Positions 40,610 to 64,000 of a stretch of DNA of 64,000 nucleotides are shown piece by piece (position 1 is the first letter of the stretch; the number at the start of each line of letters is the position of its first letter). The DNA comes from Patescibacteria group bacterium. Its GTDB lineage: Bacteria > Patescibacteriota > Patescibacteriia > SG8-24 > DYFX01. Made by a program: the position numbers and the translations under genes. The stretch spans positions 21,427 to 85,426 of the forward strand of contig JBAZZB010000002.1 in the NCBI GenBank assembly GCA_041659045.1. The letters run 5' to 3'. The notes beneath the pieces were generated by a model. The model was not told where the DNA came from, searched no databases, and worked only from the letters and a program-made list of their open reading frames with translations.

Positions 40610-40611
40610 CC

Positions 40612-41464: not shown

Positions 41465-41534
41465 CAGATATTCTGCTAATGGGACTCGGGGTCTACCATA
41501 AAACGACACCGCTAAAAGGCGGTGTTTTCGTTTT
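41465..41534 (+). repeat. intergenic repeat family copy C
   Basis: CAGATATTCTGCTAATGGGACTCGGGGTCTACCAT plus hairpin AAAACGACACCGC-TAAAAG-GCGGTGTTTTCGTTTT. Confidence 0.6.
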
Positions 41535-41621
41535 GAAATGACCCCTCTGCACCTTGACATTTCTTTTTTTTCTGCCATACTGCAGATCCTCATCGCGTCC
41601 CAACATCGTACGGAGGCTGTC

Positions 41622-42611: not shown

Positions 42612-42618
42612 ACACCTT

Positions 42619-42652
42619 GAAACCGGTCTGACTCATCAGATCGGTCTTTTAT
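42619..42652 (+). terminator. rho-independent terminator
   Basis: GACCGGTCTGA-CTCA-TCAGATCGGTC followed by TTTTATT. Confidence 0.5.
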
Positions 42653-42844
42653 TATGCGCTGCAGACGGTTGTAAAAATTCATACACGGCCCCATTGCTCC
42701 ACCTATCGTGGCCGTTGACGCTTTTCGTTGACCAATGGGCCTGCCTACTGTTGAAAGTATTGACAAAAAGGCGGAAGCGTAGTACTTTCCGCGTCTGGGT
42801 TTGGACAAACCGACCTGGTCGGAGACTTACCCATGGAGGACCTC

Positions 42845-43291: not shown

Positions 43292-43414
43292 TGCGCAGGC
43301 GGCCTCATCTATACCCCTTCCACATACGCCCCAGGCGTATTTTTTTTGTCTTCCTTTCAAAGTACAGTCGTGGTGTAATTGCCACGATGACTCTATTTGG
43401 CTAACTTCTGCGAT

Positions 43415-44935: not shown

Positions 44936-45061
44936 CCGTTCGTCTCGCACAGCGTACGCTCCGCACGAACTTGTATCTCAGACGTTGAGCGCTGAACGGA
45001 ACGTCTTCGTTTTCGCTACCCGTCGACACTTCGATTTCAGAGGACAGGTGCAATCCCTGCC

Positions 45062-45098
45062 CGGTTCGCAAAAACACCCGCCGCAAGGCGAGTGTTTT
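45062..45098. terminator. bidirectional terminator
   Basis: AAAACACCCGCCGCAAGGCGAGTGTTTTTT, the same hairpin family as the tRNA-Glu terminator. Confidence 0.5.
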
Positions 45099-48360: not shown

Positions 48361-51300
48361 TTAGAGCGCGGTCAGGTCAACCGTGAACTCGCAGCCGGCG
48401 GGGTTCGAAAGTTCAACCCTCCAGCCGCTGTTGAAGTCCGTATCGGTCGAGCGCATCTCGACCAAGCGCGTCGTGTAACCGGCGCCGCCCTGGATTCGAA
48501 GGTTTCCGGCCCTGATGGAACCGTCGGCCTGAATCGTCGGTTGGGTCGGGACCTGCACCTGGAAGACAGCAGTGACGCCGGAGGCAACCTGGCAGGTGTC
48601 ATGCACGCGGAGCGTGTTGCCCTGGAAGCGCAGATCGCGCAGCCACGACTGAACCGCATCCGAGTTGCGCGAGTACGCCGGTGTCAGGTTCGCCTGAGCC
48701 GTCACGACATCGCCGGACTTCGCGTACGTCATTGAAGAGACGGATTCGTTCTGTTCGATGATCGAGCCGTTGCGGCTGAAGCGGACGACGTTATGTGCAC
48801 CGACCGAGAGCTGCAAGCCGCTGTGCGACCACATGTTGTTCGTCGCCGCGAGCCAACCATTGCGATAGAAGGTGAAGGCACCCTGATCGTGGTGGGCGTG
48901 CGATTCGTCATACGGACCAGCAACGAACGAGAGCCATGACGCGTTGGTGTTCCAAGAGCTGCGAGCGAAGAAGTGGCCGACGCCCGTGGCGTGGTATTCA
49001 AGCGCGGTCGGAGCCGTGGCAGCATCGGAAGTCGTCAGCAGCGACGGGCGCAGGTTAAAGCCCGTGAGCGACGTGACCGAGTTGTTGTTCAGCCACCACG
49101 TACCGCGGCGAGCCTGTTCGGTGCCTGTCACGAGAGAGACGGCTTCGCGAACGAGGTTCTCGTGGTAGTCGTAGAGTTCCGGCTGAGAAACGCGGGACTG
49201 GTCGCCGATCGGAGCGAAGCGATCCATCATCGGGACGGTCGCGTGGATCCAATAGTCGATCGTGTCTTTGGCGTGCGTGGAGAACCTCGAAAGGTCTTCA
49301 CCTGTCGACGCCTTCCACATGCGGTAGTCCTCGAAGAGGTTCTTCTGCGCGGTGCCGTAACCAGTACCTTCGCGTGAACCACCACCGTTGATGCGAGCGA
49401 AGTAGTCCACGAGCGGCGGATACTTGTTCTGCTGGAGGAAGCTCATCCACGTCGTGTTCTGCGAAGCGAGTGCCCAGAGCTGGGTCGCTTTCAAGAAGCT
49501 GAAGTGGTAGTTGTTACCCGGGTTATCAATCGACCAGCCGCTCCAAGGAGCGGAGCGCGTGCCCCAACGAGCGTTCGCGGGGTCCCAGACGTTGGCAATT
49601 GTACGATCAGCGAAGGCGGCCCAGCGTGTGCGCTGCGAGGCCGTGAGTCGGTCATATCCATGGTCGTACGTGAGTGCGACCTGTTCCATGACCCAACCCA
49701 CTTCAAGATACGAGTCGCCTGCAACCTCTGGGTTGCGACCTGCGGCGATATCCGCTTCCGCTTCAGCAACCAAGGCATCAACCCTGGCGATCGCGTGCGT
49801 GATATAGGAAGCTTGGTTCGTAAGAGCGTACATCACGACAGCGTCGCTCGGGGTATAGCCGTAGCCCGGGGAACCAGCGACTGCGGAGTCCACCCAGCTC
49901 CTAAAGCTGGCGTAGGTCGGCGCGGTTTGCTTGTAGTCTCGGAGTGAGATGAACGGACGGCTCGATGGGAAGCTATAGGTGTAGCCGGGGTAGATCGTAC
50001 TTGTTGGCGGCGGCGAGCACGTCTGTGTGGTGGCCGGGCTCGGGGTCGTAGCCGTCGAGCAATTGGTCGTCATCGTGCAGGTGCGCGTCTGGCTGCCGCT
50101 CGCGGAACAAGCGTTCCAAGCGGTACACGTCCAGGTATCGGCGGTACAAGCAGGCGGCGTTGTGGTAGTCGGAGTGCAGGACTGCGTCGTGGCCGGGCTC
50201 GGAGTCGTGACGCCGGTGCAATCCGTCGTCATGCTGCAAGAGCGCGTCTGGCCGCCACTTGCGGAACAGGCGTTCCAATCCGTGCAGGACCACGTATCGG
50301 CCGTGCAAGAAGGCGAAGTTGAAGGAGCCGTGCAAGACTGGGTCGTCGCCGGGCTCGGCGTCGTGACGCCGGCGCAGTCAGCGGTCATAAGGCAGCTGCG
50401 AGCCTGGTTTCCGCTGGTCGAGCACATGACCCAATCCGTGCAGGACCACGTATCGGCCGTGCAAGAGGTCGCTCCGCCACCTGTCGAGCTGCTGCCGGGC
50501 ACCACAACATACAGGTGCGCGTCATCAACCGTAGCGGTAATCGTTCCGCCGTCATCCAGTTTGAACTGGAAGAAGACGCGTTCAAGCTGCTGGTTATTGG
50601 TGTTGAGGTTCAAGTAGACATCGACGACCTGCGTGCTCACCGGATAGTCCTGGCAGGTCGAAATTGGATCGCTGGACGAAGACAGGTAGGCAAGCGAGCA
50701 GACCTGCAAGCGGAGACCCGCAGTGGACGCACTGTCGACGCGCACTTTCGCCTTGACCGACACGGAGCTACCAAGAGGGCCACCGTTATACGGATAGTTG
50801 TGAGCGAAGGCAACGCGACCATACGAGTTCACCGTCACACGAAGGCTGTTCGTGCCCTGGAGCGTGCTCGCGGTCGTGCGAGCGACCATGCCGTCGGCGG
50901 ATTCGTTCGGTTCGAAGCCGGCGACCGACGTTTCGAATCCGTTGTCAGTAATAAGGTCAACGAGCTGGTAACCGGAAGGTACCGTCGGCATCGTGCCGGT
51001 GCTCGGTGTCGGTGCAGGCGTCGTGGCCGGCGGAGTGCAGGTTTGCGTGGTCACCGGGCTCGGAGTCACAGTGCTTGCGCACGCATTCGTGATGATGCAA
51101 ATGCGCTGCTGGGTGCCACTCGCGGAACACGTATTCCAACCCGTGCAAGACCAAATGTCGGCCGTGCAGCTCGGAGTTGTTGGCGTCATGGTCGTTGGGG
51201 TGCAGGACTGTGTCGTGGCCGGGCTTGGAGTCGTAACACCAGCGCAGTCAGCGGTCATGGTGCAGACGCGCGTCTGGCTGCCACTCGTCGAACACGAGTT

Positions 51301-51972
51301 CCAATCGGTGCAAGACCACGTATCGGCCGTGCAGCTCGGGGTCGGTACTGGTGTCGGAGTGGGCGTCGGGGTCGGAGCCGGAGTTTCGCCTGTCGGAGGC
51401 GTCGGCAAAGGTGTCGTCGTGGCAACATCACCAAGACCCTTATCAGCGTTAATCGTGGTGGCCGAAGCGAGTTCGGCGTTGCGATCGTAGTCCGCGGCGG
51501 AAGCGATCGGCGAGCCGATCGTGTAGTTTACGAAGAAAGCGTCCGGGATATCATCAACGAGTGACGCCCAGCCCGCTCCAAAAAGCGTAGCGGCGACAGC
51601 CTCGGAGGCCACGTGACGCAAAACGCCTCCGCGGGAAATCGCGTAGACCTTAGGGTCCGTGTCGATTTTGATCATGCGGAAACCTGGGCGATACGTGACG
51701 TTGCCGCCAATGCGGCTCGCGGCCAGTTCAGCGGCGGTAACCGTCTGAACGCTGGAGAAGTCGACGTACCATGTGCGAAACACCCGTTCGTTCGGGAAGA
51801 CGTAACGCCGGCCGTTTGAACCGAAGTAGTAGACGGCGGGATTATCGGCGCGCTTGATGAGAGCACCCGGCGTCGGTGCGGCTTTTGCCGTAAGAGGCAT
51901 GCCGACGAACGACGTCGCGAGCGTAAGGAGGAGGATCAAGGCACGGAACGCGTTCGTCTTCTTCATAGGCAT
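48361..51972 (-). CDS. giant secreted protein: conserved N-terminal module, PT linker, 45-aa Cys-rich tandem repeats, CBM4/9-like domain, heparinase II/III-like (polysaccharide-lyase fold) C-terminal domain
   Basis: Signal peptide MPMKKTNAFRALILLLTLATSFVGMPLTAKA. Module YYFGSNGRRYVFPNERVFRTWY…IGGNVTYRPGFRMIKIDTDPKVY. Repeats SCTADTWSCTDWNxCSxSGxQTRxCxMTxDCAGVTTPSPATTQ in two plus four copies. CBM-like NGFETSVAGFEPNES…. C-terminal region …HHDQGAFTFYRNGWLAATN… Paralog of 57158..60580. Confidence 0.8.
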   Translation of the reverse strand: MPMKKTNAFRALILLLTLATSFVGMPLTAKAAPTPGALIKRADNPAVYYFGSNGRRYVFPNERVFRTWYVDFSSVQTVTAAELAASRIGGNVTYRPGFRMIKIDTDPKVYAISRGGVLRHVASEAVAATLFGAGWASLVDDIPDAFFVNYTIGSPIASAADYDRNAELASATTINADKGLGDVATTTPLPTPPTGETPAPTPTPTPTPVPTPSCTADTWSCTDWNSCSTSGSQTRVCTMTADCAGVTTPSPATTQSCTPTTMTPTTPSCTADIWSCTGWNTCSASGTQQRICIITNACASTVTPSPVTTQTCTPPATTPAPTPSTGTMPTVPSGYQLVDLITDNGFETSVAGFEPNESADGMVARTTASTLQGTNSLRVTVNSYGRVAFAHNYPYNGGPLGSSVSVKAKVRVDSASTAGLRLQVCSLAYLSSSSDPISTCQDYPVSTQVVDVYLNLNTNNQQLERVFFQFKLDDGGTITATVDDAHLYVVVPGSSSTGGGATSCTADTWSCTDWVMCSTSGNQARSCLMTADCAGVTTPSPATTQSCTAPSTSPSCTADTWSCTDWNACSASGGQTRSCSMTTDCTGVTTPSPATTQSCTPTTTTPPACTADTWTCTAWNACSASGSQTRTCTMTTNCSTATTPSPATTQTCSPPPTSTIYPGYTYSFPSSRPFISLRDYKQTAPTYASFRSWVDSAVAGSPGYGYTPSDAVVMYALTNQASYITHAIARVDALVAEAEADIAAGRNPEVAGDSYLEVGWVMEQVALTYDHGYDRLTASQRTRWAAFADRTIANVWDPANARWGTRSAPWSGWSIDNPGNNYHFSFLKATQLWALASQNTTWMSFLQQNKYPPLVDYFARINGGGSREGTGYGTAQKNLFEDYRMWKASTGEDLSRFSTHAKDTIDYWIHATVPMMDRFAPIGDQSRVSQPELYDYHENLVREAVSLVTGTEQARRGTWWLNNNSVTSLTGFNLRPSLLTTSDAATAPTALEYHATGVGHFFARSSWNTNASWLSFVAGPYDESHAHHDQGAFTFYRNGWLAATNNMWSHSGLQLSVGAHNVVRFSRNGSIIEQNESVSSMTYAKSGDVVTAQANLTPAYSRNSDAVQSWLRDLRFQGNTLRVHDTCQVASGVTAVFQVQVPTQPTIQADGSIRAGNLRIQGGAGYTTRLVEMRSTDTDFNSGWRVELSNPAGCEFTVDLTAL

Positions 51973-51989
51973 TTGGGTTTAAGAACTAT

Positions 51990-52018
51990 ATTGTATCAAA
52001 AAAACGTCAAGAGTTCAA
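51990..52018 (-). promoter_or_regulatory. sigma70-like promoter (TTGAAC, 17 nt, TACAAT), duplicated with 60597..60625
   Basis: Minus strand reads TTGAAC tcttgacgtttttttga TACAAT about 15 nt before the ATG. The ~50 bp upstream region is near-identical between the two paralogs. Confidence 0.45.
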
Positions 52019-52192
52019 GTCCACTTTTCCTCTTGTAGATGATTGAGCTGTTAAAGAAGTTGCCCACAGTCCCCACTTACCTGAAATTATGCTAGGATAA
52101 AAGTAATTGCTCACCTGCATGAGCGATGCCTGGTCGCTGTAATGACGCAGAACAACTAAGTTCTCGTCCATTACTGCGTCTAATAGACTGGC

Positions 52193-53998
52193 ATGAAAAA
52201 ATATGTGCGCGCGTCGAGCGGCTTTGCGGCTCTTTTTTTAGCTTTAATTCTTGCTCTACCGTTTAGTGCCAAGGCGGCAACGACGCCATCACTTGGTGCG
52301 GCGGCAGAGTATGCCATCTTGGCTAGCACCTACACCAACACGGTGGGTGGCACTACGGTCACTGGTAGTATCGGCTTCACAACACCTCCGGGTGTTGTCC
52401 CAGGTGGCGTCCACGCGAACTACGGTTCCGGCGCCCCGTATTCTACGGCCGGCACTGATCAAGGTACGGCACTTAGCGCTCTTGCGGCACAGGCCTGTAC
52501 ATTCACGTTCGCCCCAGGCGCAATTAACCTCTCAACCGACATCACGCACGGCCCGGTCGGTGTCTATACGCCTGGTGTCTATTGCAGCTCTGGAGCTATG
52601 AACGTCGGCGGTCCCCTGACCTTAAACGGCAGCGGCACCTACATCTTTAGAGCGGTCGGAGCGCTCACCTCGACGGCCGGCGCTGTCGTCACACTCTCTG
52701 GCGCTTCTGCTTGCGACGTCTTCTGGACGCCGACGCAAGCCACGACCTTGGCCGCCAACACGACATTTGCCGGTACCGTCATCGATAACGCAGGAGTGAC
52801 CGTGGGTGCCAACACCACATGGTCCGGTCGCGCTCTCGCCTTCGGAGGCACGGTTTCGACCGATACCGACACCATCAGCGTACCGACCTGCACGACGACG
52901 ACAACCACGACGTCGAGCAGCCCAAACCGCGGATCCATCGCTGTCATCAAGCGGGTTATCAACGATAACGGCGGTACCAGCACGATTGCGAACTTCCCCT
53001 TGTATGTGAACGGAACGCCGGTCGCTTCCGGTGTGAGCAATGATTTTTCGGCTCCGGCGGGCGTCTATACGGTAACGGAGAGAACGGATGAGCGTTATAC
53101 GCAAATCTTTTCCGGCGATTGCGACGCAAGCGGGCGTTTGAACCTGAACCCAGGCGATGTCCGTATCTGTATCGTCACGAACGACGACATTGGAGCGCCT
53201 GTGGCTGTTCCGCCCGTGCCGCCGCTGATCGATGTCGTGAAGGTTCCGAGTCCCCTCTCGTTGCCGAACGGCCCTGGTTTGGTGGAATACACCTACACCC
53301 TTCGCAACATCGGAACCGTTCCGGTCACGGACGTCACAATGGTCGGTGACACGTGCGTGCCGATCGTTCTCATGTCCGGCGACACGGATGCCGACTCTCG
53401 CCTTGATACGTCTGAAACGTGGGTCTATCGCTGCACGACACAGCTCAACGAAACGCATACGAATACCGTTGTCGCCACGGGTTGGGCAAACGGCATTAGC
53501 GCCGTTGATATCGCAAGCGCCTCGGTCGTCGTCGGCTTGCCGATCGTGCCGCCGCTGATTCACGTGACGAAGATTCCGAGCCCGCTCACGCTCGCCGCTG
53601 GAGGCGGAGTGGTCACCTACACCAAGAAAGTCACGAACCCAGGCATCGTAGCGCTGAGCAACGTCTACCTCACGGATGATATGTGCAGCTCTGTCGTGTA
53701 TGTGTCCGGCGATGCCAACAGCGATACGAAACTCGATACGTCGGAAACGTGGACCTATACCTGCCAAACAACGTTATTGAAAACTACGACGAATACCGTC
53801 ACGGCCAGCGGTGAAGCAAATGGTTTGACCGCAAGAGATTTCGCGGTCGCGACCGTTGTTGTCGCGGCTCTCGTGCCGAAACTGCCAAACACCGGATTCG
53901 CAAGCGCAAACATGGTCTTTGCCTGGAGCGCCTTCGCGGCAGCTCTGGTCATCAGCGCGGCACTCTGGGCAGTCCGTCGCAAAAGCCAGGTTCAATAA
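52193..53998 (+). CDS. LPXTG-anchored surface protein: DUF3494 (ice-binding-like) N-domain, prealbumin-like domain, two DUF11 repeats
   Basis: Signal peptide MKKYVRASSGFAALFLALILALPFSAKA. C-terminal sorting signal LPNTG plus hydrophobic helix plus RRKSQ. Internal modules are shared with 54743..57118. Confidence 0.8.
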   Translation: MKKYVRASSGFAALFLALILALPFSAKAATTPSLGAAAEYAILASTYTNTVGGTTVTGSIGFTTPPGVVPGGVHANYGSGAPYSTAGTDQGTALSALAAQACTFTFAPGAINLSTDITHGPVGVYTPGVYCSSGAMNVGGPLTLNGSGTYIFRAVGALTSTAGAVVTLSGASACDVFWTPTQATTLAANTTFAGTVIDNAGVTVGANTTWSGRALAFGGTVSTDTDTISVPTCTTTTTTTSSSPNRGSIAVIKRVINDNGGTSTIANFPLYVNGTPVASGVSNDFSAPAGVYTVTERTDERYTQIFSGDCDASGRLNLNPGDVRICIVTNDDIGAPVAVPPVPPLIDVVKVPSPLSLPNGPGLVEYTYTLRNIGTVPVTDVTMVGDTCVPIVLMSGDTDADSRLDTSETWVYRCTTQLNETHTNTVVATGWANGISAVDIASASVVVGLPIVPPLIHVTKIPSPLTLAAGGGVVTYTKKVTNPGIVALSNVYLTDDMCSSVVYVSGDANSDTKLDTSETWTYTCQTTLLKTTTNTVTASGEANGLTARDFAVATVVVAALVPKLPNTGFASANMVFAWSAFAAALVISAALWAVRRKSQVQ

Positions 53999-54089
53999 AC
54001 AGGAAACTCATTGCCGCGCTCATATTTTTGAGCGCGGCACCTGTTTTTTGTGGAAGATGAACATTTCTGAGAGCTGACTTGCAGAATCA

Positions 54090-54722
54090 ATGTCCCAAGT
54101 GCCACGCGAATTGAAAATCCGAGAGGAGCTAAGAACGTTTGCTGTTGTCTTGGCGGCAGGCAGCTTCTTGTTCGCGTACAACCTCTTGACGCGCGGAAGC
54201 GTCGTGCTTCCGGCGCGCGCAAGCGAGGCGGTCCAGACAGCAAACGTGTTGGCTGCCGCTGCGCCCACAAAGTACGTCGAGCAGCCGGCTCGTATCAGGA
54301 TCCCGCACATCGCGGTGAATGCGGCCATCGAACACGTCGCGCTCGCCAAAGACGGTTCTATGGACATACCGAAGCGTCCGATGAACGCCGCCTGGTACGA
54401 ACTTGGGCCGCGTCCCGGCGAGATCGGAAGCGCCGTACTCGCGGGCCACATCAATTGGTACAACGGCGCGCGAGGCGTCTTCAGGAATCTCCACAAGTTG
54501 AAACCTGGTCACACGATCCAAATCCAGGACACGAACGGAGTCGTTATGGTGTTTGTCATCAAAAACATCCAAGTCCTTCCCGCCGAGACGGATGCGACCA
54601 ACGTTTTTCATTCGGAAGACGGCAAAGCGCATCTGAATATCGTTACGTGCGGCGGCGTCTGGGACAAGCGAACGAAGCGGTATACGAAACGTCTTGTCGT
54701 GTTCGCAGATAAACAAGAATAA
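54090..54722 (+). CDS. sortase family transpeptidase
   Basis: N-terminal TM, catalytic His (AVLAGH) and the active-site Cys in LNIVTCGG; it sits directly downstream of the LPXTG substrate gene. Confidence 0.8.
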   Translation: MSQVPRELKIREELRTFAVVLAAGSFLFAYNLLTRGSVVLPARASEAVQTANVLAAAAPTKYVEQPARIRIPHIAVNAAIEHVALAKDGSMDIPKRPMNAAWYELGPRPGEIGSAVLAGHINWYNGARGVFRNLHKLKPGHTIQIQDTNGVVMVFVIKNIQVLPAETDATNVFHSEDGKAHLNIVTCGGVWDKRTKRYTKRLVVFADKQE

Positions 54723-54742
54723 CTCACGCGCACCGTCCGACT

Positions 54743-57118
54743 ATGCAAACGACTATGATACCTCGCACCAGAATCCGTGCGGTGCTGATTGGAGTCTCCG
54801 CCTTTTTCGGCCTGTTCTGTCTCGCATCGGCGACAAAAGCTGAGTCCCTGGTCCTCAACGCCGCCGCTGACTCGTACGTCCAAAGCGGGTCGCCAAACGC
54901 GAACAATGGCACCCAAAACATCATGGACCTGACCGACAATAAGCACGGTGTCATTCGTTTTGATCTCAGCGCGATTCCACCTGGGTCGACGATCACGTCG
55001 GCAATCTTGACGCTCCGAGCGACAGCCGTCGGCAATTCCGGATCGATTAAAAACTTCGGAATGCACCGAATCCTATCGGACTGGGTCGAAAACACCGTGA
55101 CATGGAACCTCCCGGGAAGCGCTGCGGGCACGCACTACGCGTCTGCGCCGATCCAGACGATCGCGGTCACAAACATCGGCCTTTATACCTGGAACGTTAC
55201 TTCCGACGTCGTGAGTTTTTCGAGCGGCTCTGAGGCGAATCGCGGCTGGCGCATTATCTGGTCGTCGAACACGAGCGGCGCAAGCAAGCAAGTCGACTTC
55301 GGATCGAAGGAAAATACCACGTCTACGAATCGTCCCAGTCTGACCGTCACCTATACACCGCCCGTTTCCGGATTGCAGCGCCAAGGAACGATCACCGTCT
55401 TGAAAGTCGTCATCAACGACAATGGCGGCCTAAAGGTTCCGGAGGATTTTCCAATTTTTGTCAATACGGAGCCGGTGACTTCCGGTATTTCGCATACCTT
55501 CCCCGCTCCGGCCGGTGTCTATGAAGTCAGTGAGCTCGGCGATCCAAACTATGTACGGTCGTTTTCGGGCGATTGCGATGCGGCCGGTCGATTAAACCTC
55601 AATCCCGGCGACGTGCGGTTTTGTATCATCAAGAACGACGATATCGGCCCACCCGTGCTGACCCCACCCCCCATCCCGCCACTGATCGGTGCCCTGCTGA
55701 CCGCGAATCCATTGGCGCTGCCGGACGGTCCCGGACGGGTTTCCTACGCGTACACGTTAAAGAATATCGGCTCAACCCCGATCACGGGAGTAACGATCGT
55801 CAGCGATACTTGTACGCCGACATTCTTGGGTTCGGGTGACACGAACAAAGACGCCAAACTTGATACAACGGAAACATGGGTCTATCAATGCGAAACGCAG
55901 ATTGAAGAAACGCGCACGAATACGACCATCACGACAGGGTGGGCCAACGGTCTGGTGACGGCCGATATTGAAGCATTGACGACCCTGGTCGGAACCTCGC
56001 TCGTAGCACCTATCATTCACGTGACGAAGGTTCCGAGTCCACTCGCCCTGAGCGCTGCCGGCGGCATCGTGACCTACACGCAGCAAATCACGAATCCCGG
56101 CACAGTCGCGCTCAGCAATGTACGCATCTCGGACGACGTTTGCGCGCCACTGCAGTACATTTCCGGCGACTCCAACGACGACGGTTTGCTCAACACGACC
56201 GAAACTTGGACGTACATCTGCCGGAAGGTGCTGACCAAGACCACGACCAACACCGTCGTCGTGAGCGGAGAAGCGAACGGTATGGTGGCAAGAGATTTTG
56301 CGCTGGCCACCGTTGTCCTGTCGGACGTGATGGATACGCACTACTACGGCGCCACAGAGGCAACAGCATCCGCGATGAGCATCAGCGCCAACAACGGTAT
56401 GCTGCTACCCCCTCTTGGCCAACCCGCATTATGTGCTGACGGCAGTCTCATGACATTGCCAGATGACGGCAATGCTTCCACACAGTCCGACTCCGCGCTC
56501 TATGTGTGTGGCATGGACGGAAAACGTTACGTCTTTCCGGATGTGGGAACGTATTACAGCTGGTACAAGGACTTTCAAGGCGTGAGCGTCGTCTCCGCAG
56601 AGTTTCTAGCGACTCTCCCGCTTGCCGGAAACGTCACCTACCGTCCAGGCCAGCGTTTATTGAAGATCGAGTCGGATCCAAAAACCTATGCTGTCGCGCA
56701 AGGTGGCGTGCTGCGCTGGGTCGTCGACGAATCGACGGCACAAGCCCTTTACGGAGCGCAGTGGAATACGTTCGTCTCAGACATTCCTGTTTCACTCTTC
56801 AGCGACTACCGCATCGGCGATCCTATTACGACGCAGGACGTGCTTCCGGATTCGATTCCTCCGCGCTCGGTTTGCATCGCGACTGCTGATTTTACCAAGT
56901 ATCTTTCGTTCGAAAGTGTGGACGCTGAGGTACGACCACTTCAGGAGCTGCTGCAGTGCCTTGGATACTTCCGAGCCGATGTGGCGCCAAACGGCTACTT
57001 CGGAGTTCAAACCAAGGTTGCCGTGGAGAAATTCCAAACCGCGCGCGGTATCGCGTCTGTCGGCTACGTTGGGCCAGCCACGCGTGCGGCTCTGAATACC
57101 TACGTCGAAGGTCGATAA
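54743..57118 (+). CDS. surface protein: DNRLRE-like N-domain, prealbumin-like plus two DUF11 repeats, conserved ~110-aa module, PG_binding_1 domain
   Basis: Signal peptide …SAFFGLFCLASATKA. DNRLRE-like segment LVLNAAADSYVQSGSPNANNG…FDLSAIPPGSTITSAILTL. Conserved module YVCGMDGKRYVFPDVGTYYSWY…AGNVTYRPGQRLLKIESDPKTY. C-terminal LQELLQCLGYFRADVAPNGYFGVQTKVAVEKFQTARG is a peptidoglycan-binding domain. Confidence 0.8.
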   Translation: MQTTMIPRTRIRAVLIGVSAFFGLFCLASATKAESLVLNAAADSYVQSGSPNANNGTQNIMDLTDNKHGVIRFDLSAIPPGSTITSAILTLRATAVGNSGSIKNFGMHRILSDWVENTVTWNLPGSAAGTHYASAPIQTIAVTNIGLYTWNVTSDVVSFSSGSEANRGWRIIWSSNTSGASKQVDFGSKENTTSTNRPSLTVTYTPPVSGLQRQGTITVLKVVINDNGGLKVPEDFPIFVNTEPVTSGISHTFPAPAGVYEVSELGDPNYVRSFSGDCDAAGRLNLNPGDVRFCIIKNDDIGPPVLTPPPIPPLIGALLTANPLALPDGPGRVSYAYTLKNIGSTPITGVTIVSDTCTPTFLGSGDTNKDAKLDTTETWVYQCETQIEETRTNTTITTGWANGLVTADIEALTTLVGTSLVAPIIHVTKVPSPLALSAAGGIVTYTQQITNPGTVALSNVRISDDVCAPLQYISGDSNDDGLLNTTETWTYICRKVLTKTTTNTVVVSGEANGMVARDFALATVVLSDVMDTHYYGATEATASAMSISANNGMLLPPLGQPALCADGSLMTLPDDGNASTQSDSALYVCGMDGKRYVFPDVGTYYSWYKDFQGVSVVSAEFLATLPLAGNVTYRPGQRLLKIESDPKTYAVAQGGVLRWVVDESTAQALYGAQWNTFVSDIPVSLFSDYRIGDPITTQDVLPDSIPPRSVCIATADFTKYLSFESVDAEVRPLQELLQCLGYFRADVAPNGYFGVQTKVAVEKFQTARGIASVGYVGPATRAALNTYVEGR

Positions 57119-57120
57119 GA

Positions 57121-57155
57121 AAAACACCCCGCATGCGCGGGGTGTTTTTTTGTCC
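57121..57155. terminator. bidirectional terminator
   Basis: AAAACACCCCGCATGCGCGGGGTGTTTTTTTG palindrome. Confidence 0.6.
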
Positions 57156-57157
57156 GA

Positions 57158-60100
57158 TTACCACATGCTCCGGCCGCCGAGCGCCCAACCAATGACGGGG
57201 GCGTTCTTGTACTGCCAGAGGAATTTGCGGGGCGGAACCGTGCGGTAGACAGCGCGGCCAGCAGCGCGCGTTGCGTCGCTGTTGCGGGTCCAATAAGCAA
57301 TGGACTCGTCGTGCGTCAGAAGCAGCTGCTTAGCAATATTCTGAAGCGAGGTGCGCTGTGTCATGTCGGTCGTGAAGTAGGCACCGAGGGCGACGACACT
57401 GCTCACGTCGAGCGAGTGTTCGAAGCCGTTGGCCGGATCCGGATCAGCATCACCCTTCGCACCGAAGCTGTAGGCGATGTAGTACGGGTAGTAGCGGCCA
57501 ACCGACATCGGTCCGTCTTCTCCGGCTTGAAGCGTCGTGATACCGCGGTTCACTTCGCACTGTGCGAGATCAACCAAGGCGGCGGGCACGGACGAGTGAC
57601 CAGTGGCTTGGTAACCGCGGAGGAAACCATAGGCCAAGAGACTCGACATCCACGGTGAGAAGGTATTGTTCTCCCCTTCCGGCGGATAGTTGAAGCAGCC
57701 GTTCGGCGCGTTGCCGTTCAAGCTCGAAGTCTGGCGTGCGCGCATCGTATTGATGGCGTTCGTGACCATCGCGCGCTGGTGGGCGCTACCCGTCAACTCG
57801 GCGTCGACAGCGTGCGCGAGCAAGGCGTAACCGCGATGGCGTTCCGTTTCACCGGTTCCCATCAAGTTGATGTGGAACTCCATGGCCCAAGAGATGTAGC
57901 CGATCTTCTTGAGGTGCGTCGTGTCACCTGTCAGGAGGTAGTTCGAGAGAAGACCTTCGCTGTACGAATACTTGAGGTCGTGGAAGGAGCCGGCGGCGTC
58001 GGGATTCTTCAGGCGGAAGCTGCCGACGCAGTACGGATAGTACGTACCTGAGCAGTTTTCCGGCCCATAGATGTTCTGCGCGTAGTGATCCGCAGCGCGC
58101 TGCGCTTCACGGAGCATGTCGGCGTTGCCGGTACGGAAGTAGCCGTTATAGAAGGTCTGCGTGCGGTCGTAGAGCCACGGTTCTGCGTCGGTGTAGAAGT
58201 CGATGAGGTCATCGGCATAGGTCACCGGCCACGACTGCTTCACCGAGTGCTGGTTGGTGAGCGAGTAGAAGAAGTCATCGGTGGCTTTGTCCGTGGCGGC
58301 GAGATACGTCTGGGTGCCGGTCGGGTTCACCATCGGGAAGATGGCCGTGCAGTCCAAGTAGCGGTTATCGATTGCGGCGAGCACGCGCGGTTCGCGAATC
58401 GTGAGGCCGCTCGTGTTTACGGACGGCGCATACGTGCCGTCATTCACGACGCGATACGTGTCGCGCACCGGGGTTTCGCTCGTAAGGTTCTGCGTGCGAG
58501 CGCGGTTCAAGCCGACCGTGACGGTCACCGGGCTGGTACTCGAGAAGTTCATGTCGAACTGGACGAGCACGCTGCGGATACCGGGGTTACCGGAAGCCGT
58601 GAGGCCGTTGCAGAGCAAACGCTGATCCGGCATCTGTTCCCAAGCGCCGAGACTGCGGACGAAAGCCGGGAGTTCCTGGCCGGCAGCGTTCGTCACGCGG
58701 ATATTATTGGTATTCACGAGCGTGCTCGGCGGGAGCGGGAAGCCGAACGAAACGCGGCGCGTCTGGCCGACGGAGTCGGCAGCCGGGATCAAGCGGACCG
58801 TGACGTCCTTCGGCGTGGTGTTGACCGCGGCGCCGTTCGAGGAGAGGTCGTTACGCAAGTCCATTTCGGCGGTCATCGAACGGAACGTGGTCGGACGGCT
58901 GTTATAGCCAGACAATTCAAGGTTGGTCGAATCCGAGGCCGGGGGCGGCACCGTGCAAGATTGCGACGTGGCCGGGCTCGGCGTGGTGACGCCAGCGCAA
59001 TCCGTCGTCATGCTGCAGGAGCGCGTCTGGCTGCCGCTGGCAGAACAGGCGTTCCAGTCAGTACATGTCCAGGTATCGGCCGTACAGCTCGGAGACGGCG
59101 TCGGCGCAGGTGCGGGCGTCGGGGTCGTGGTTGAACACGACTGTGAAGTCGCCGGGCTCGGCGTCGTGACGCCGGCGCAGTCAGACGTCATGCTGCAAAG
59201 ACGCGTCTGGTTGCCGCTTGTCGAGCACGCATTCCAATCCGTGCAGGACCACGTGTCGGCCGTACAGGTCGGAGCTGGCGTTGAAGCAGCCCTCTGCTCA
59301 ACAACATAGAGGTGCGCGTCATCAACCGTAGCCGTAATCGTGCCCGCATCGTCCAGTTTGAACTGGAAGAAGACGCGCTCGAGACGTTGGTTATTGGTGT
59401 TGAGGTTCAAGTAGACATCAGTGGACTGCGTGCTCACCGGGTAATCCTGGCAGCTCGAGATCGGCTGACCCGAAGAAGCGAGATACGCGATCGAGCAGAT
59501 CTGCATGCGCAAACCGGCTGCGGAAGCGCTGTCGACTCGGACCTTGGCTTTCACCGTCACCGAGCTCGCGAGCGGACCGCCGTTATAGGGGTAGTTGTGC
59601 GCGAAGGAGACGCGGCCATAGGAGTTCGTGGTCACGCGAAGGCTGCTCGTACCTTGAATCGGGCTTGCAGTGATACGAGAAACCGTACCATCGGACGATT
59701 CGTTCGGCTCGAAACCACCAACGGATGATTCGAAACCATTGTCCGTGATGTAGTCAGCGAGCGCGGAGCCGGAAGGAACCGTCGGCATCTGTCCGGTGGT
59801 CGGCGTCGGAGTGGGCGCGGGGGTCGTGACCGGCGGCGTGCAGGACTGTGTGGTAGCCGGGCTCGGCGTCGTGACGCCGGCGCAGTCGGTTGTCATGCTG
59901 CAAAGGCGCGTCTGGCTGCCGCTGGCAGAGCAGGCGTTCCAATCGGTGCAAGACCACACGTCAGCCGTGCAGCTCGGGGTCGGAGTGGGCGTCGGGGTAG
60001 GGGTCGGCGCCGGCGGAGGCGTCGGAGTGGCAATATTGCCAAGACCCTTATCCCCATTAATACTGGTCGCCGAAGCAAGTTCAGCCGTGCGATCGTAGTC

Positions 60101-60580
60101 GGCGGCGGAATTGATGGGCGAACCGTCGGTGTAGTTTACGAAGAAGGCGTCCGGAATATCGTCGATAAGCGACGCCCAGCCGGAGCCAAAGATGGCGGCA
60201 GCGACGGCTTCAGACGAAACAAAGCGCAAAATGCCGCCACGCGAGATCGCGTAGACGCTGGGATCGGTATCGATTTTGATCATGCGAGAACCCGGGCGAT
60301 ACGTGACGTTGCCGCCAATCGTGATCGCGGCGAGTTCATCGGCCGTGACGGTTTGAACGCTGGAAAAATCGGAGTACCAGGTTCGGAAAACGTTTTCGTT
60401 CGGGAAGACGTAACGCCGGCCGTTGGAGGCGAAGTAATAGACGGCAGGATGATCGGCGCGCTTGATGAGGGCACCCGGAGTCGGTGCGGCTTTTGCCGTA
60501 AACGGCATGCCGACGAAGGACGTCGCGAGCGTAAGGAGGAGGATCAAGGCACGGAACGCGTTCGTCTTCTTCATAGGCAT
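57158..60580 (-). CDS. giant secreted protein, paralog of 48361..51972, with a different (alpha/alpha)-toroid-like C-terminal domain
   Basis: N-terminal ~180 aa are >90% identical to the paralog, including the signal peptide and module. One plus two Cys-rich repeats and a CBM-like domain follow. The C-terminal 600 aa are distinct (…YYPYCVGSFRLKNPDAAGSFHDLKYSYSEGLLSNYLLTGD…), consistent with a glycoside hydrolase/lyase-like toroid; this call is low certainty. Confidence 0.8.
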   Translation of the reverse strand: MPMKKTNAFRALILLLTLATSFVGMPFTAKAAPTPGALIKRADHPAVYYFASNGRRYVFPNENVFRTWYSDFSSVQTVTADELAAITIGGNVTYRPGSRMIKIDTDPSVYAISRGGILRFVSSEAVAAAIFGSGWASLIDDIPDAFFVNYTDGSPINSAADYDRTAELASATSINGDKGLGNIATPTPPPAPTPTPTPTPTPSCTADVWSCTDWNACSASGSQTRLCSMTTDCAGVTTPSPATTQSCTPPVTTPAPTPTPTTGQMPTVPSGSALADYITDNGFESSVGGFEPNESSDGTVSRITASPIQGTSSLRVTTNSYGRVSFAHNYPYNGGPLASSVTVKAKVRVDSASAAGLRMQICSIAYLASSGQPISSCQDYPVSTQSTDVYLNLNTNNQRLERVFFQFKLDDAGTITATVDDAHLYVVEQRAASTPAPTCTADTWSCTDWNACSTSGNQTRLCSMTSDCAGVTTPSPATSQSCSTTTPTPAPAPTPSPSCTADTWTCTDWNACSASGSQTRSCSMTTDCAGVTTPSPATSQSCTVPPPASDSTNLELSGYNSRPTTFRSMTAEMDLRNDLSSNGAAVNTTPKDVTVRLIPAADSVGQTRRVSFGFPLPPSTLVNTNNIRVTNAAGQELPAFVRSLGAWEQMPDQRLLCNGLTASGNPGIRSVLVQFDMNFSSTSPVTVTVGLNRARTQNLTSETPVRDTYRVVNDGTYAPSVNTSGLTIREPRVLAAIDNRYLDCTAIFPMVNPTGTQTYLAATDKATDDFFYSLTNQHSVKQSWPVTYADDLIDFYTDAEPWLYDRTQTFYNGYFRTGNADMLREAQRAADHYAQNIYGPENCSGTYYPYCVGSFRLKNPDAAGSFHDLKYSYSEGLLSNYLLTGDTTHLKKIGYISWAMEFHINLMGTGETERHRGYALLAHAVDAELTGSAHQRAMVTNAINTMRARQTSSLNGNAPNGCFNYPPEGENNTFSPWMSSLLAYGFLRGYQATGHSSVPAALVDLAQCEVNRGITTLQAGEDGPMSVGRYYPYYIAYSFGAKGDADPDPANGFEHSLDVSSVVALGAYFTTDMTQRTSLQNIAKQLLLTHDESIAYWTRNSDATRAAGRAVYRTVPPRKFLWQYKNAPVIGWALGGRSMW

Positions 60581-60596
60581 TTGGGTTTAAGAACTA

Positions 60597-60625
60597 CATT
60601 GTATCAAAAAAACGTCAAGAGTTCA
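60597..60625 (-). promoter_or_regulatory. duplicated sigma70-like promoter (copy 2)
   Basis: Same TTGAAC/17/TACAAT arrangement as 51990..52018. Confidence 0.45.
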
Positions 60626-60659
60626 AGACCTCTTTGACGTTTTCCTGTAATTTTAGCGA

Positions 60660-61062: not shown

Positions 61063-62760
61063 TTATTTGTTGATGTCTTCAATGCTATCCGAAATATACT
61101 TGCTGAGCTCCTTCGCTCGTTTTTTCCAACGCTCCAGAAGCGTCAGCGTTTCTTTCGTTTCCGATTCCGCGAGCGTCGCCTGCTTCCCGTACTTCTTGAG
61201 CAGATACCCGAAGTCTTTCTCCATTTGATCTCCCGCCGAGAGTAAATCGCGCTGCGCGATCACTTGGCGATTTCTCCGCTTCCGTCCGCGCACCTGGCTC
61301 ATCCTCCAACCCACGACGTACCCGCCAAGGAGCAGCGCGATGATAGAGAGGAAGAAAACCGCTTGGGAAACTTCAATGCCCGCCAAGACGAGGAAGGGGC
61401 GCGCTCGTACGGTGAACGGGGCCGTACGGACCGGAAGACTGAGAGCGCCGCGCTCGTCGCGAGCGACGGCCTCAACCATATACTGACCCTTTTGGAGCGG
61501 ATGCTCAATATGAGCGTTCCACACCCCATTTTCATCCGGAGCGATGGTCGTGGTTGCAACCGTTTCGCCATTGATCCGTCTGAGCGTCACCAAGACGCTT
61601 GCTCCCGGCATCACTGTACCAGCAATGGTCAGCTCGCCCTCGTCGACGAAAATATCCCTGGGGATCGCGCTGATCGTCGGAGACACGATCGGTACGATCG
61701 TGAGATCGACGGAAGCTTCCGTACGGTTGCCCGCCTGGTCGATCGCGAAGATCTTTACGACGTGCTCGCCAGGAGGAAGCGGCTGAAGCGCTTGCTCGCT
61801 TTCCGTTTGAATTTCCTCACCGGCGTCGATCCGCATGCGGTAGGCGCGGAGCCCGGAAAGCTGGTCGGCACTGGCGTAGGAAAGCTTCGGATTCGGCACG
61901 TCGGAGATCGCTCCTTGTGGAACAAGCACTTCAAACGGCGTCGGCGGAAGCGTGTCGATGGCGATACGGTAGTGCGTCGTTTCGCTCCAACCGACGTTGT
62001 TTCGGAAGCGCACGTGTAGATACCAGATCCCATCTTTTGTGACACGGAAGAGCTTGTTATCGAACAACCCTTCTGATTTCGACGGATTCGTTTGCGGATC
62101 CTGGTTCAATGCTGTCGCGACCGCACTTACGTCGGAAGGAAGATTCCACTTCGCGATAAACGTCGAGAGGATGTTGTACCAATCGCTCGAATTTGGATAG
62201 AGCGGAATTTCAACTTTTGGGGCGTCAGGATTTTTTTCCGCCGGAGTCGGCTCGCGCGTAATCTGCGTCGGCTTTTCCTCGAGCGGCGCAGTGTTCGCAA
62301 TACTGATGCCGTGCATGGCCGTGAGCACGTTGGTGCCGGCTCCATCGCTCGCCGCGACGGCTCCATCGACAAACTGAAAGTCTGCCGTACCGATTTTTTT
62401 GATCTTGAACGTCACGCGTACGATCGGCAGCGACTGCCCGACAAAACCGTTGGTTGAACCGCCCGTGAAGACGATGCGGCCTGTTTCATTCGAATAACTC
62501 GGGCCCTCGACCCAAAAGTTAAACACGGAGTCGTTCGTATCGACGCCAACAGCTTCGACAAGGTCGATCGGGTACTGAAGCGACGCTTCGGCAGCGTTGA
62601 TACCGGCGTTTTCCGTATTGATCGTGAGCGTGAGCGTGACGTTTTCGCCAACCTTGGCAGAACTCTTATCGAGAAGCGCATCGAGCGTGGCAGCGGAGAC
62701 ATGGCTACCGATGAGCACTCCTGCGAGCACCAACGGCGCGTACAGATATGTGAGGCGCAT
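61063..62760 (-). CDS. membrane-anchored surface protein with N-terminal cohesin-like domain
   Basis: Signal peptide MRLTYLYAPLVLAGVLIGSHVSAA. Cohesin-like beta-sandwich GENVTLTLTINTENAGINAAEASLQYPIDLVEAVGV…GRIVFTGG…FVGQSLPIVRVTFKIKKIG. Ig-like domains, C-terminal TM helix, cytoplasmic coiled-coil tail. Confidence 0.6.
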   Translation of the reverse strand: MRLTYLYAPLVLAGVLIGSHVSAATLDALLDKSSAKVGENVTLTLTINTENAGINAAEASLQYPIDLVEAVGVDTNDSVFNFWVEGPSYSNETGRIVFTGGSTNGFVGQSLPIVRVTFKIKKIGTADFQFVDGAVAASDGAGTNVLTAMHGISIANTAPLEEKPTQITREPTPAEKNPDAPKVEIPLYPNSSDWYNILSTFIAKWNLPSDVSAVATALNQDPQTNPSKSEGLFDNKLFRVTKDGIWYLHVRFRNNVGWSETTHYRIAIDTLPPTPFEVLVPQGAISDVPNPKLSYASADQLSGLRAYRMRIDAGEEIQTESEQALQPLPPGEHVVKIFAIDQAGNRTEASVDLTIVPIVSPTISAIPRDIFVDEGELTIAGTVMPGASVLVTLRRINGETVATTTIAPDENGVWNAHIEHPLQKGQYMVEAVARDERGALSLPVRTAPFTVRARPFLVLAGIEVSQAVFFLSIIALLLGGYVVGWRMSQVRGRKRRNRQVIAQRDLLSAGDQMEKDFGYLLKKYGKQATLAESETKETLTLLERWKKRAKELSKYISDSIEDINK

Positions 62761-62765: not shown

Positions 62766-64000
62766 TTATTTACGAATCGTTCGAATAAAGATGCTGAAGT
62801 CTGACACGTCGACCTCTCCGTCACTATTCATATCAAGCAGCGCGCGTAGGCTTTCGTCGGCTGATCGCCACCGATAGAGGAAGATGCTCCAATCGGCGAT
62901 ATCGACCTTCGTATCCTCGTTGAGATCCGTCCGCGCGTTCAGGACCCTGGAGACGTTTAAGGTTTTTGGTACCGAGTCCCCGCTCTTCACGCCGTCTGCC
63001 GCAACCTGTCGCGTGCGAATGGCGTGTTTGCCGTATTCCAGCTGCAGCGTCGGCAAGAGGAGTTTGTAGGTACCGTCCTCTTCAACGATCACTTTTTGAA
63101 ACGCCTCATCATCGATGACGACTTCCACGTGATATCCAGGCGTTCCGTAGCCGAACACGAGAATTTGGTTTCCTCGCAAGATCGAGGCACGCGAGAGGTT
63201 GATCGTCGGTGCTGGGAAAATTATCCGCTCGGTAACCGCGTTCAATTCAACTTCGTCCGTGAACGGAATGGATGGACTTACTTGCCCTTGCTTGTCCGTC
63301 ACGCTGACTTCGTAGGAGGCGATCTCTTCAAACGGTCCGGCGTATTCCAGCTGGAAGCTGCCGTCTGCCGACGAGACGACGGCTTCCGACAGCACCAAAT
63401 TCGTTTTCTCGTTCTTGCCGTTGAGCGCCAAGCGCGCACCCGGATACGCCCGGCCGACGAAGCGAAGAATCGTCTGTGCCGGCAACGGCGAGGCGGAACC
63501 AGAACCGCCATAGGAAACGGACGCTTCCTCACCAACGGCTCTGAAAACCGCTTGCTGCATCGAAGACACGTTTAGTCCCGTTGATTCGACGTCTGTCAGC
63601 GTGAGCGTGACCGTTTCAGCAACAGCACTCGTGAGCGTCGCGGTGCCGACGCCGTTTACGACATCAATCACACCGTCGCCTGTCGCGGAGCCATCCGCGT
63701 TCAACCGAACATCCGTTTGATAGGACGTGTCGACGTTTCCGCTTGCGTCCTCTGCCCTGACAACAACAGTCATGTTACCGCCAACGACGACATCTTCCGG
63801 ATCAAGAATAGCGAACCGTGTCGCAACAATCGGCGCGGCACTCACAGCAACAGTATCCGCTGCGTCCGCGACGCCGGCTGCGCCATCCGGACCCGATGCG
63901 TTATCCGAAACCGTAATTATCCTGCTCCCCTCTCCTTCGTCGTAATACCAGAACGCGCCAGTGGACTGACCCGCCGCGATCACGAGCGACGTTATTTGCG
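62766..64000 (-). CDS. dockerin-containing secreted protein (5' end probably beyond window)
   Basis: C-terminal duplicated Ca-binding dockerin segments DLNEDTKVDIADWSIFLYRW … DMNSDGEVDVSDFSIFIRTI, preceded by beta-sandwich/Ig-like repeats. The frame continues to the window edge beyond the ORF-track Met at 63983. Confidence 0.6.
   Translation of the reverse strand, partial: QITSLVIAAGQSTGAFWYYDEGEGSRIITVSDNASGPDGAAGVADAADTVAVSAAPIVATRFAILDPEDVVVGGNMTVVVRAEDASGNVDTSYQTDVRLNADGSATGDGVIDVVNGVGTATLTSAVAETVTLTLTDVESTGLNVSSMQQAVFRAVGEEASVSYGGSGSASPLPAQTILRFVGRAYPGARLALNGKNEKTNLVLSEAVVSSADGSFQLEYAGPFEEIASYEVSVTDKQGQVSPSIPFTDEVELNAVTERIIFPAPTINLSRASILRGNQILVFGYGTPGYHVEVVIDDEAFQKVIVEEDGTYKLLLPTLQLEYGKHAIRTRQVAADGVKSGDSVPKTLNVSRVLNARTDLNEDTKVDIADWSIFLYRWRSADESLRALLDMNSDGEVDVSDFSIFIRTIRK

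Follow-up and report, generated by a model that had tools for sequence, protein, structure and literature searches.

A short, probably converted tract at the 5' ends of two old tandem paralogs for putative surface enzymes in a member of the Patescibacteria

Introduction

How do two genes of one chromosome come to share an almost identical promoter, leader and signal peptide while the second halves of their products are unrelated? The question is raised by a 64,000-nt stretch of DNA from a Patescibacteria group bacterium (contig JBAZZB010000002.1; the whole stretch is called the window hereafter), in which two large genes, A and B, both on the minus strand, begin with a common head. After the signal peptide, this head consists of a domain of 155 amino acids (aa) that we call N-dom, Pro/Thr linkers, Cys-rich repeats, and a beta-sandwich resembling a carbohydrate-binding module (CBM).

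48361..51972, minus strand: gene A, 1203 aa (open reading frame list, translation, and ortholog alignment)
57158..60580, minus strand: gene B, 1140 aa (open reading frame list, translation, and alignment)

An earlier note on this DNA had read the likeness of the two 5' ends as a recent segmental duplication or a gene conversion. The account that we favor, and that we consider likely, is a layered one: A and B are old tandem paralogs with a shared head in which repeated conversion, first in the CBM segment and later over about 160 bp at the 5' end, has acted together with purifying selection.

Results

Extent and register of the repeat

The loci of A and B are joined by a direct repeat far above chance expectation, which blastn resolved into two alignments (both with E=0), one pairing 51197-52027 with 59835-60635 (81.2% identity over 831 bp) and the other pairing 50174-51177 with 58953-59980 (75.2% over 1037 bp); the DNA repeat families D1, D4, and D5 cover the same region. 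In total, about 1.85 kb are homologous at 75-81% identity (50174-52027 in A, 58953-60635 in B), which corresponds to residues 1 to about 650 of A and 1 to about 545 of B, or about half of each gene. Upstream, the homology ends a few bases beyond the -35 box, where identity drops to random level, and at the other end it stops after a Cys-rich repeat, the C-terminal halves being unrelated. The earlier description of different bodies therefore stands, but the head they share takes up about half of the gene, and not the one third that was implied when the differing part was put at the 3' two-thirds.

The two copies are offset by 8608 nt, and 51480-52025 pairs with 60088-60633. The pairing reported previously (51480..52025 with 60090..60635, an offset of 8610) is 2 nt out of register and yields an identity of only 23%. 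Once the register is corrected, 463 of the 546 positions agree (84.8%), short of the more than 90% that had been stated, and the agreement is uneven: 77.5% in 51480-51786 (238/307), 94.5% in 51787-52021 (222/235), and 95.6% in 51862-52021 (153/160). The near-identical part hence measures only about 160 bp, rather than about 550 bp, even though it does lie where the earlier note had located the strongest likeness, in the promoter, the 5' untranslated region (UTR), and the first 105 or so coding nucleotides.

51862..52021, minus strand: near-identical tract, A copy (promoter, 5' UTR, and signal-peptide codons), with its 3' limit between 51862 and about 51787
60470..60629, minus strand: near-identical tract, B copy, likely the recipient for the coding part (from the contrast with the B gene of the relative L009, below)
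51990..52018, minus strand: promoter-like site of A, TTGAAC-17-TACAAT with TG (extended -10), conserved in orthologs
60598..60626, minus strand: promoter-like site of B, by sequence match to the A site
51880..51972, minus strand: signal-peptide codons of A, MPMKKTNAFRALILLLTLATSFVGMPLTAKA followed by AP, with n, h, and c regions and an A-x-A site (read from the translation)
60488..60580, minus strand: signal-peptide codons of B, one residue different from A (L27F; read from the translation)

The promoter described earlier is indeed present at both loci, with all 29 nt equal. It appears to be of the sigma-70 type, matching 9 of 12 hexamer positions at either locus with a spacing inside the 16-18 nt range, and no further copy was found within the window; co-regulation of A and B by these identical sites is plausible. 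Both proteins start with a putative Sec signal peptide for signal peptidase I, MKKTNAFRALILLLTLATSFVGMP(L/F)TAKA followed by AP, in which MKKTNAFR, ALILLLTLATSFVG, and MPLTAKA could be told apart by eye ahead of the AP. An in-frame ATG, two codons ahead of the likely start and confined to this lineage, is found at -6 in both window copies and in the A gene of L009, but not in its B gene. As this upstream ATG is missing from orthologs, A likely starts at the second ATG, at 51966 (MKKTNAF...), and B likely starts at 60574.

Age of the duplication

The best protein matches of the window belong to Patescibacteria (candidate phyla radiation, CPR), the window's own proteins being absent from the protein collection that was searched. 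Four related assemblies carry the gene pair:

L009: JGI 3300045502, B at 2667-6065, A at 6243-9845
L005: complete genome CP129476.1, B at 10001-13360, A at 13489-17199
L001: GCA_020049755.1, end of B, then A
L012: ENA ERZ21828292, B without the head, then A

Each of these four assemblies has the two genes on one strand, with A coming directly after B. The closest relative is L009, with nucleotide identities of 90.5% (B) and 89.4% (A) over the whole genes, and in the four assemblies the C-terminal halves are orthologous gene by gene at 77-90% aa identity. Divergence was measured on a codon alignment of seven copies using Nei-Gojobori distances. Beyond codon 60, the synonymous divergence (dS) between the paralogs is 0.95-1.16 in the window, 0.8-1.1 in L009, and 0.5-2.2 in L005, compared to 0.2-0.8 between window and L009 orthologs, and in this part the genes group by orthology, with the exception of the CBM segment, which groups by clade. 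Because the tandem B-A pair recurs in four other assemblies with orthologous C-terminal halves, the duplication is old, and A and B are, as far as these comparisons go, old tandem paralogs of a Patescibacteria lineage.

These data bear directly on the recent segmental duplication proposed before, whether it comprised about 550 bp or the entire head, to which the bodies would have been joined later. The high likeness at the extreme 5' end and the sharp edge of the homology at the -35 box are what such an event could leave behind. The homology, however, extends over 1.85 kb at no more than 75-81% with a saturated dS of about 1, both genes have orthologs in the same order in four other assemblies, and each C-terminal half clusters with those of its own gene. 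On the strength of the orthologous pairs in L009, L005, L001, and L012, we reject this explanation, to which we assign hardly any probability at all.

The L012 copy of B, a 976-aa ortholog at 2386-5609, has an unrelated start and neither promoter, signal peptide, nor N-dom, while A of the same assembly keeps its head; head loss, head replacement, or an assembly problem could each account for it. L012 was left out of the head comparison, given its headless B and the fact that including it degraded one alignment.

A short tract probably converted after the split from L009

If the duplication is old, the likeness of the 5' ends must be weighed against what the same segment looks like in the relatives. 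Over codons 1-35, the window paralogs are 95.2% identical at the nucleotide level (dS 0.16), whereas the L009 paralogs reach 79.0% (dS 0.71) and those of L005 74.3% (dS 0.93); window A and its L009 ortholog agree at 89.5%, and window B and its ortholog at 82.9%. Synonymous divergence is, in other words, far from uniform along the gene pair, as it rises from that low value to about 1 beyond codon 60. The differences between paralogs are distributed as follows (window pair; L009 pair; L005 pair):

-35 box to ATG: 2/54; 16/55; 9/55
ATG to +105: 5/105; 22/105; 27/105
+106 to +180: 6/75; 4/75; 7/75
+181 to +240: 16/60; 14/60; 12/60

Fisher's exact test on the segment from the ATG to +105 gave p=7e-4 for the comparison with the L009 pair and p=3e-5 for that with the L005 pair. 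When 1572 ungapped columns were divided into 90-nt intervals, only the first one deviated, with 3 differences between the window paralogs versus 20 and 24 in the relatives. In that first interval, B of the window differs from its L009 ortholog at 18/90 positions, a count that falls to 1/90 in the second interval and again in the third, while A differs from its own ortholog at 8/90, which is the background level. Since the anomaly is seen in B and A remains steady, it is B that would have received A-type sequence. Both window copies also lack one A in the UTR (CTT-AAACCC), a derived 1-nt deletion not seen in A and B of L009, in L008 (a further related contig), in A and B of L005, or in A of L001. 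The ATG at -6 fits the same picture, as B of the window has it in common with both A genes whereas B of L009 is without it.

The tract reaches at least from the UTR to about +100, and at most from the -35 box to about +180. Taken together, the sequence comparisons point to a short gene conversion of about 160 bp that probably took place after the split from L009 and probably ran from A to B. The gene conversion put forward in the earlier note is therefore supported for this tract alone, from promoter and 5' UTR to about codon 35.

Two other ways of arriving at similar 5' ends were considered in light of the same data. In the first, an allelic replacement, homologous recombination brought in one of the 5' ends, or both, from a related strain, with no copying inside the genome. 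Homologous recombination between related strains is common in bacteria, and the 5' end of window B is indeed unlike that of its closest known ortholog; both loci, however, would need to have obtained the same variant, 1-nt deletion included, and the A copy, at a distance of 8.6 kb and with only 5/105 differences from B, is the simplest donor. We find this route highly improbable. In the second, the tract is an artefact of metagenome assembly, in which reads of A type were threaded through the B locus, or the reverse, between conserved anchors. The tract is in fact flanked by identical or nearly identical paralog stretches (promoter to +45 and +106 to +180) that could act as graph junctions, and the related contigs L008 and L010 break inside A/B-type genes, a sign that this family is hard to assemble. 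Against this, there are 7 differences inside the tract whereas a bubble collapse would yield identical sequences, each copy has unique flanks, and the upstream flank of A (CAAG.GGAAAA) is orthologous to the flank of other A genes. An artefact is, in our judgment, very unlikely.

Purifying selection on the 5' core

Selection has a part in this region as well. Across all eight copies from five genomes, no variation is seen in the promoter TTGAA..TTTTTGATA(C/T)AAT, in the part of the UTR that borders the ATG, or in roughly the first 45 coding nucleotides, and GCCTATGAAGAAGACGAACGCGTTCCG and TTTTTTGATA(C/T)AAT are kept in all eight in spite of an ortholog dS of about 1. Because conversion cannot act between species, this core is under purifying selection at the nucleotide level, which acts on the promoter and on the translation-initiation region. 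A hairpin is predicted in which the start-codon region pairs with +47 to +67 of the coding sequence (z=-2.6 in the window).

51880-51985 and 60488-60593: predicted start-codon hairpin in A and B, with equivalents in L009, L005, L001, and L012

This predicted hairpin is kept in 8/8 sequences with zero compensatory changes, and we treat it as no more than a lead to the cause of the nucleotide invariance.

Could purifying selection on promoter, initiation region, and signal peptide suffice, with no transfer between the copies? The invariance of the -10 element with its T-tract, of the ATG-adjacent UTR, and of the early codons speaks in favor of it, as do the conservation of +106 to +180 in all paralog pairs (4-7 differences per 75 nt) and the retention of the consensus hairpin. 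Constraint alone, however, does not enforce identity, because the L009 and L005 paralogs have diverged in the very segment at stake, at the 22 and 27 positions given above. Selection would likewise not account for a window B that is far from its own ortholog in the tract and nearly identical to it just downstream, nor for the derived deletion common to both window copies, and the hairpin offers not one compensatory pair. We therefore deem selection without conversion very unlikely.

A probable older event in the CBM segment

The CBM segment, which does not follow orthology, seems to have a history of its own. In a neighbor-joining tree of this segment, A and B of the window and of L009 fall together in 93% of bootstraps, while all A copies are grouped in only 4%. 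Distances are about 0.2 within the window/L009 group of A and B, and the B genes of the L005/L012 clade are far off (d about 0.6). These trees suggest that the CBM segments of A and B were homogenized in the ancestor that the window genome shares with L009, and, together with the 5' tract, that the head has a history of repeated recombination. As for the shuffling of a common head onto different bodies that had been envisaged earlier, the domain anatomy supports the shared head, and the recombination history of the head supports the shuffling in part.

Several observations weigh against this account of two conversions. The 5' tract is not identical between the copies but carries 7 differences in 160 nt, which means that the event was either not very recent or patchy. 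If it was not patchy, it would postdate the divergence from L009 by a wide margin, and yet a considerable share of the time since that divergence would have elapsed after it. Some B-type bases persist in window B (+54 C and +102 C, for example), and the direction is accordingly not clean. The 17-nt promoter spacer of the window copies is also found in B of L009 and in A of L005 and L012, so that the identity of the promoters may be retained ancestry. The event is timed by a single close relative, L009, and a permutation test on the longest identical run, similar to GENECONV, singled out the conserved CBM stretch and not the 5' tract. The test missed the latter because of its scattered mismatches, and it is for this reason that conversion was deduced from the contrast with the paralog pairs of the relatives. 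Finally, the tree of N-dom is ambiguous, with bootstrap values of 50% and 47% for the two groupings.

N-dom, a candidate anchoring domain

A widespread component of the head is N-dom, an unclassified domain that might serve as a surface-anchoring module.

51403..51867, minus strand: N-dom of A, terminal domain of about 155 aa, putative anchoring module (AlphaFold2 model and profile matches)
60011..60475, minus strand: N-dom of B (alignment with A)

Its motif is AVYY..G.RYVFPNE..WY..IGGNVTY.PG..M.K...DPKVY. It had no match in Pfam at E<=10 and none in NCBIfam, and its AlphaFold2 model (mean predicted local distance difference test, pLDDT, of 91.7) has the repeat domains of EccB1 as best fold match, a weak one (E=0.02, template modeling [TM] score of 0.28). 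In the protein library, the domain matches 4470 representatives of clusters at 50% identity (1430 of them at E<=1e-30), and nearly always lies either at about residues 20-190, directly behind the signal peptide, or at the very C-terminal end. Among the carriers are many proteins of about 1200 aa made of beta-strand repeats, from Uhrbacteria and other Patescibacteria. Four proteins of the window carry it: A, B, the product of 9627-13043, with N-dom at 9630-10100 (its C-terminus), and a protein called X2, with N-dom at about 56495-56833 (residues 585-697, directly ahead of a PG_binding_1 domain). The 9627-13043 gene, on the minus strand, encodes a secreted protein of 1138 aa with about 15 DUF5122/delta-60 beta-propeller repeats before the N-dom, and its repeats have a DNA periodicity of 153 nt (repeat families D2, D3, and D6).

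Remaining modules of the head

51202-51333, 51037-51168, 50332-50463, 50176-50307, and 50017-50148, minus strand: five Cys-rich repeats of A, spanning 50017..51333 (family D1)
59840-59971, 59135-59266, and 58955-59086, minus strand: three Cys-rich repeats of B, spanning 58955..59971 (family D1), the homology with A ending directly behind the last of them
50503..50991, minus strand: CBM-like beta-sandwich of A (weak Pfam matches to Mann_GBD_bact, E=4e-4, and CBM_4_9, E=0.08)
59300..59788, minus strand: CBM-like domain of B, clustering with the A-type CBMs of the window/L009 clade

In A, the order of parts is signal peptide, N-dom, two Cys-rich repeats, CBM-like domain, three Cys-rich repeats, and a heparinase II/III-like C-terminal half; B has the same head with one and two Cys-rich repeats, then a C-terminal half made of a beta-sandwich and an (alpha/alpha)6 barrel. 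The last repeat of A (50017-50148) has no counterpart in B. These repeats are 44-47 aa long with six cysteines (CTADTWSCTDWNACSASGSQTRSC...), and none matched a Pfam family. Their pattern can be written C-TAD-W-C-(T/S)-W-x2-C-S-x-S-G-x-Q-x-R-x-C ... C ... C, and the repeats also occur in homologs from Acidobacteria/Thermoanaerobaculia (P0008, P0012). Pfam found nothing at E<=0.01 on full-length A and B and only sub-threshold matches domain by domain, and NCBIfam gave nothing useful on the domains. A scan with the conserved DNA pattern of the signal peptide returned only the CP129476.1 pair and one copy at a contig end from the genome contig collection, and no match from the metagenome contig collection; given so few matches, the head seems limited, within these two collections, to a narrow lineage.

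The two C-terminal halves

48364..50010, minus strand: C-terminal half of A, distant heparinase II/III-like domain (Pfam, PDB, and profile matches)
57161..58948, minus strand: C-terminal half of B, beta-sandwich and (alpha/alpha)6 barrel, six-hairpin glycosidase-like (AlphaFold2 and Foldseek)

The C-terminal half of A matches Pfam Hepar_II_III_C at E=0.007 (16.3 bits, under the curated cut-off of 24) and heparinase III of the PDB at E=0.024, and NCBIfam HepB/HepC at E of about 0.01, far under the cut-offs. A profile built from nine homologs of this half matched PDB heparinase II at E=8.5e-5 over about 200 positions; 4/9 of the aligned homologs match PF07940 (best E=8.7e-6), and homologs carry either PF07940 or PF16332. 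A itself does not reach the curated cut-off of PF07940, but the remote homology is detected through the family profile, and this half is probably a polysaccharide lyase. Its profile likeness is to the heparinase II/III lyases (Pfam PF07940/PF16332; PDB 3e7j, 4mmi), from which protein A differs in scoring below the Pfam cut-off.

The C-terminal half of B gave no sequence match in Pfam, NCBIfam, or PDB, nor any glycoside hydrolase (GH), polysaccharide lyase, or epimerase family by sequence. Its AlphaFold2 model (pLDDT 94.5, predicted TM score 0.94) places helices from 198 to 575, and all 32 Foldseek matches in the PDB at E<=1e-3 are (alpha/alpha)6 enzymes, namely AGE epimerases, GH88 unsaturated glucuronyl hydrolases, GH76, GH127, and GH9-like enzymes (E from 1e-5 to 1e-3), with TM-scores of only 0.33-0.40 and identities of 10-15%. 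Homologs of this half number 74, from diverse phyla, and one of them carries PF07944. The contrast drawn previously between a heparinase-like domain and another toroid domain holds as a remote similarity, although A stays under the Pfam cut-off and B is without a sequence family.

Neighborhood of the gene pair

52193..57118, plus strand: two paralogous genes between B and A, on the opposite strand, absent from the B-A gap of the four relatives
52193-53998, plus strand: first of the two, Ice_binding/DUF7507/DUF11
54743-57118, plus strand: second of the two, X2, CBM96/DUF7507/DUF11/N-dom/PG_binding_1
57120..57151, minus strand: hairpin and T-run AAAAAAACACCCCGCGCATGCGGGGTGTTTTT, directly 3' of the B stop codon

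A and B are 5.2 kb apart in the window only, as compared to 125-180 bp in the four relatives, and for this reason the segment 52193-57118 appears as a lineage-specific insertion or rearrangement. Hairpins similar to the one after B follow this gene in L009, L005, and L001 as well.

Two adjacent minus-strand genes encode a product containing Cohesin and Ig-like domains (61063-62760) and one that has a type I Dockerin at its end (62766-63983). This cohesin-dockerin pair, lying beside the putative surface enzymes, may form a small scaffolded surface assembly. Farther away, 37913-41539 contains a tRNA-Glu (37913-37987) and, after it, four or five copies of an element of about 50-110 nt that ends in ..G(G/T)(C/T)TACCAT and a hairpin terminator. 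Every copy of this element (repeat families D7 and D11) lies ahead of small plus-strand open reading frames and a Phage_30_3 gene (41538-42611); these could be tandem integrated elements or repeated att-like sites. Lastly, 41550-45098 is 89% identical to L001 7882-11377, while identity to that contig is only 72-83% for the neighboring major facilitator superfamily (MFS) gene and for A and B; such unequal divergence suggests either a recent transfer or strong constraint.

Discussion

The probable conversion between A and B is a further example of a familiar process, gene conversion between surface-protein paralogs, in a little-studied phylum. Concerted evolution is a general pattern in prokaryotes (prokaryote-wide survey, PMC6053082), and segmental concerted evolution of paralogous surface-protein genes is known from babA/babB and homA/homB of Helicobacter pylori (review PMC3960876). 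As in those genes, paralogs of one genome that encode secreted or surface proteins are more alike in one segment than orthologs are, the rest following descent, and intragenomic homologous recombination is the presumed cause. In H. pylori, however, a 3' segment is homogenized, while in A and B the homogenized part measures only about 160 bp and sits at the very 5' end, promoter and UTR included; A and B moreover have unrelated catalytic bodies, belong to a Patescibacteria (CPR) host, and have no evident role in phase or antigenic variation. The tract is unusually short, and it is placed at the 5' end, over the UTR and the signal-peptide codons.

The sequences themselves show the domain anatomy, the age of the duplication, and an excess of similarity in the tract that is peculiar to this lineage. 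In mechanistic terms, the heads amount to homologous repeats in direct orientation that lie 8.6 kb from each other in the same chromosome, and they would be open to repeated non-reciprocal recombination. Recombination of the RecA type could copy an occasional patch from one head to the other, and patches that preserve a working promoter, initiation region, and signal peptide would survive. An older patch would have covered the CBM segment in the ancestor of the window and L009, and a later one of about 160 bp the 5' UTR and signal-peptide codons in this lineage only; its coding part most likely passed from A to B. The outcome would be two genes with nearly equal signals for expression and export and the same accessory modules, but different catalytic ends.

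As to what is being kept alike, A and B probably encode secreted, cell-surface-displayed carbohydrate-active enzymes, judging from their predicted domains; the enzyme activities, the anchoring role, and the co-regulation are all ones that we infer. Modular carbohydrate-active enzymes with shared accessory modules are common, and A and B resemble them in having a signal peptide, Pro/Thr-rich linkers, a CBM-like sandwich, and small repeats ahead of the catalytic domain, with two catalytic folds bearing the same accessory set. They differ in that N-dom and the Cys-rich repeat match no Pfam family and that the catalytic domains are only remote relatives of heparinase II/III and of the six-hairpin glycosidases. 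GH88 enzymes act on the products of lyases, and it is plausible that the lyase-type A and the six-hairpin B form a co-expressed, surface-displayed pair working on one extracellular polysaccharide.

N-dom invites comparison with the SLH and CWB2 anchor modules, which are common to S-layer proteins and to many other surface proteins of one genome (bioRxiv 10.1101/2025.04.02.646754). Like them, it is terminal and sits on many unrelated proteins; unlike SLH, CWB2, LysM, or PG_binding domains, however, it has no sequence similarity to any of these and only the weak fold match to EccB1. By analogy, it would work as an anchor of the SLH/CWB2 type while being a member of no known family. Our literature searches for an S-layer or anchoring domain already described in Patescibacteria turned up nothing specific. 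A bolder and rather doubtful possibility is that the head common to A and B serves Patescibacteria as a portable cassette for surface display, made of promoter and initiation region, a possible hairpin sequestering the start codon, a Sec signal peptide, and N-dom, and kept uniform between paralogs by recurrent gene conversion, so that enzymes of different activity are co-expressed and co-displayed. N-dom, widespread but undescribed, also heads S-layer-like proteins of about 1200 aa in this phylum.

With regard to the biology of these organisms, our results suggest that even small Patescibacteria genomes homogenize parts of paralogous surface-enzyme genes by intragenomic recombination. They also advise caution against reading local identity as recent duplication, as a near-identical promoter can be a short conversion patch on an old one. 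The pairing of a lyase-like and a six-hairpin enzyme under one head and one promoter suggests a co-regulated, two-step attack on extracellular polysaccharide. The by-products of this analysis may in the end outweigh the conversion itself, as N-dom, an abundant terminal domain that neither Pfam nor NCBIfam recognizes, may be the cell-surface anchor that has been missing for Patescibacteria proteins, and, along with the possible regulatory hairpin, could be the more promising lead.

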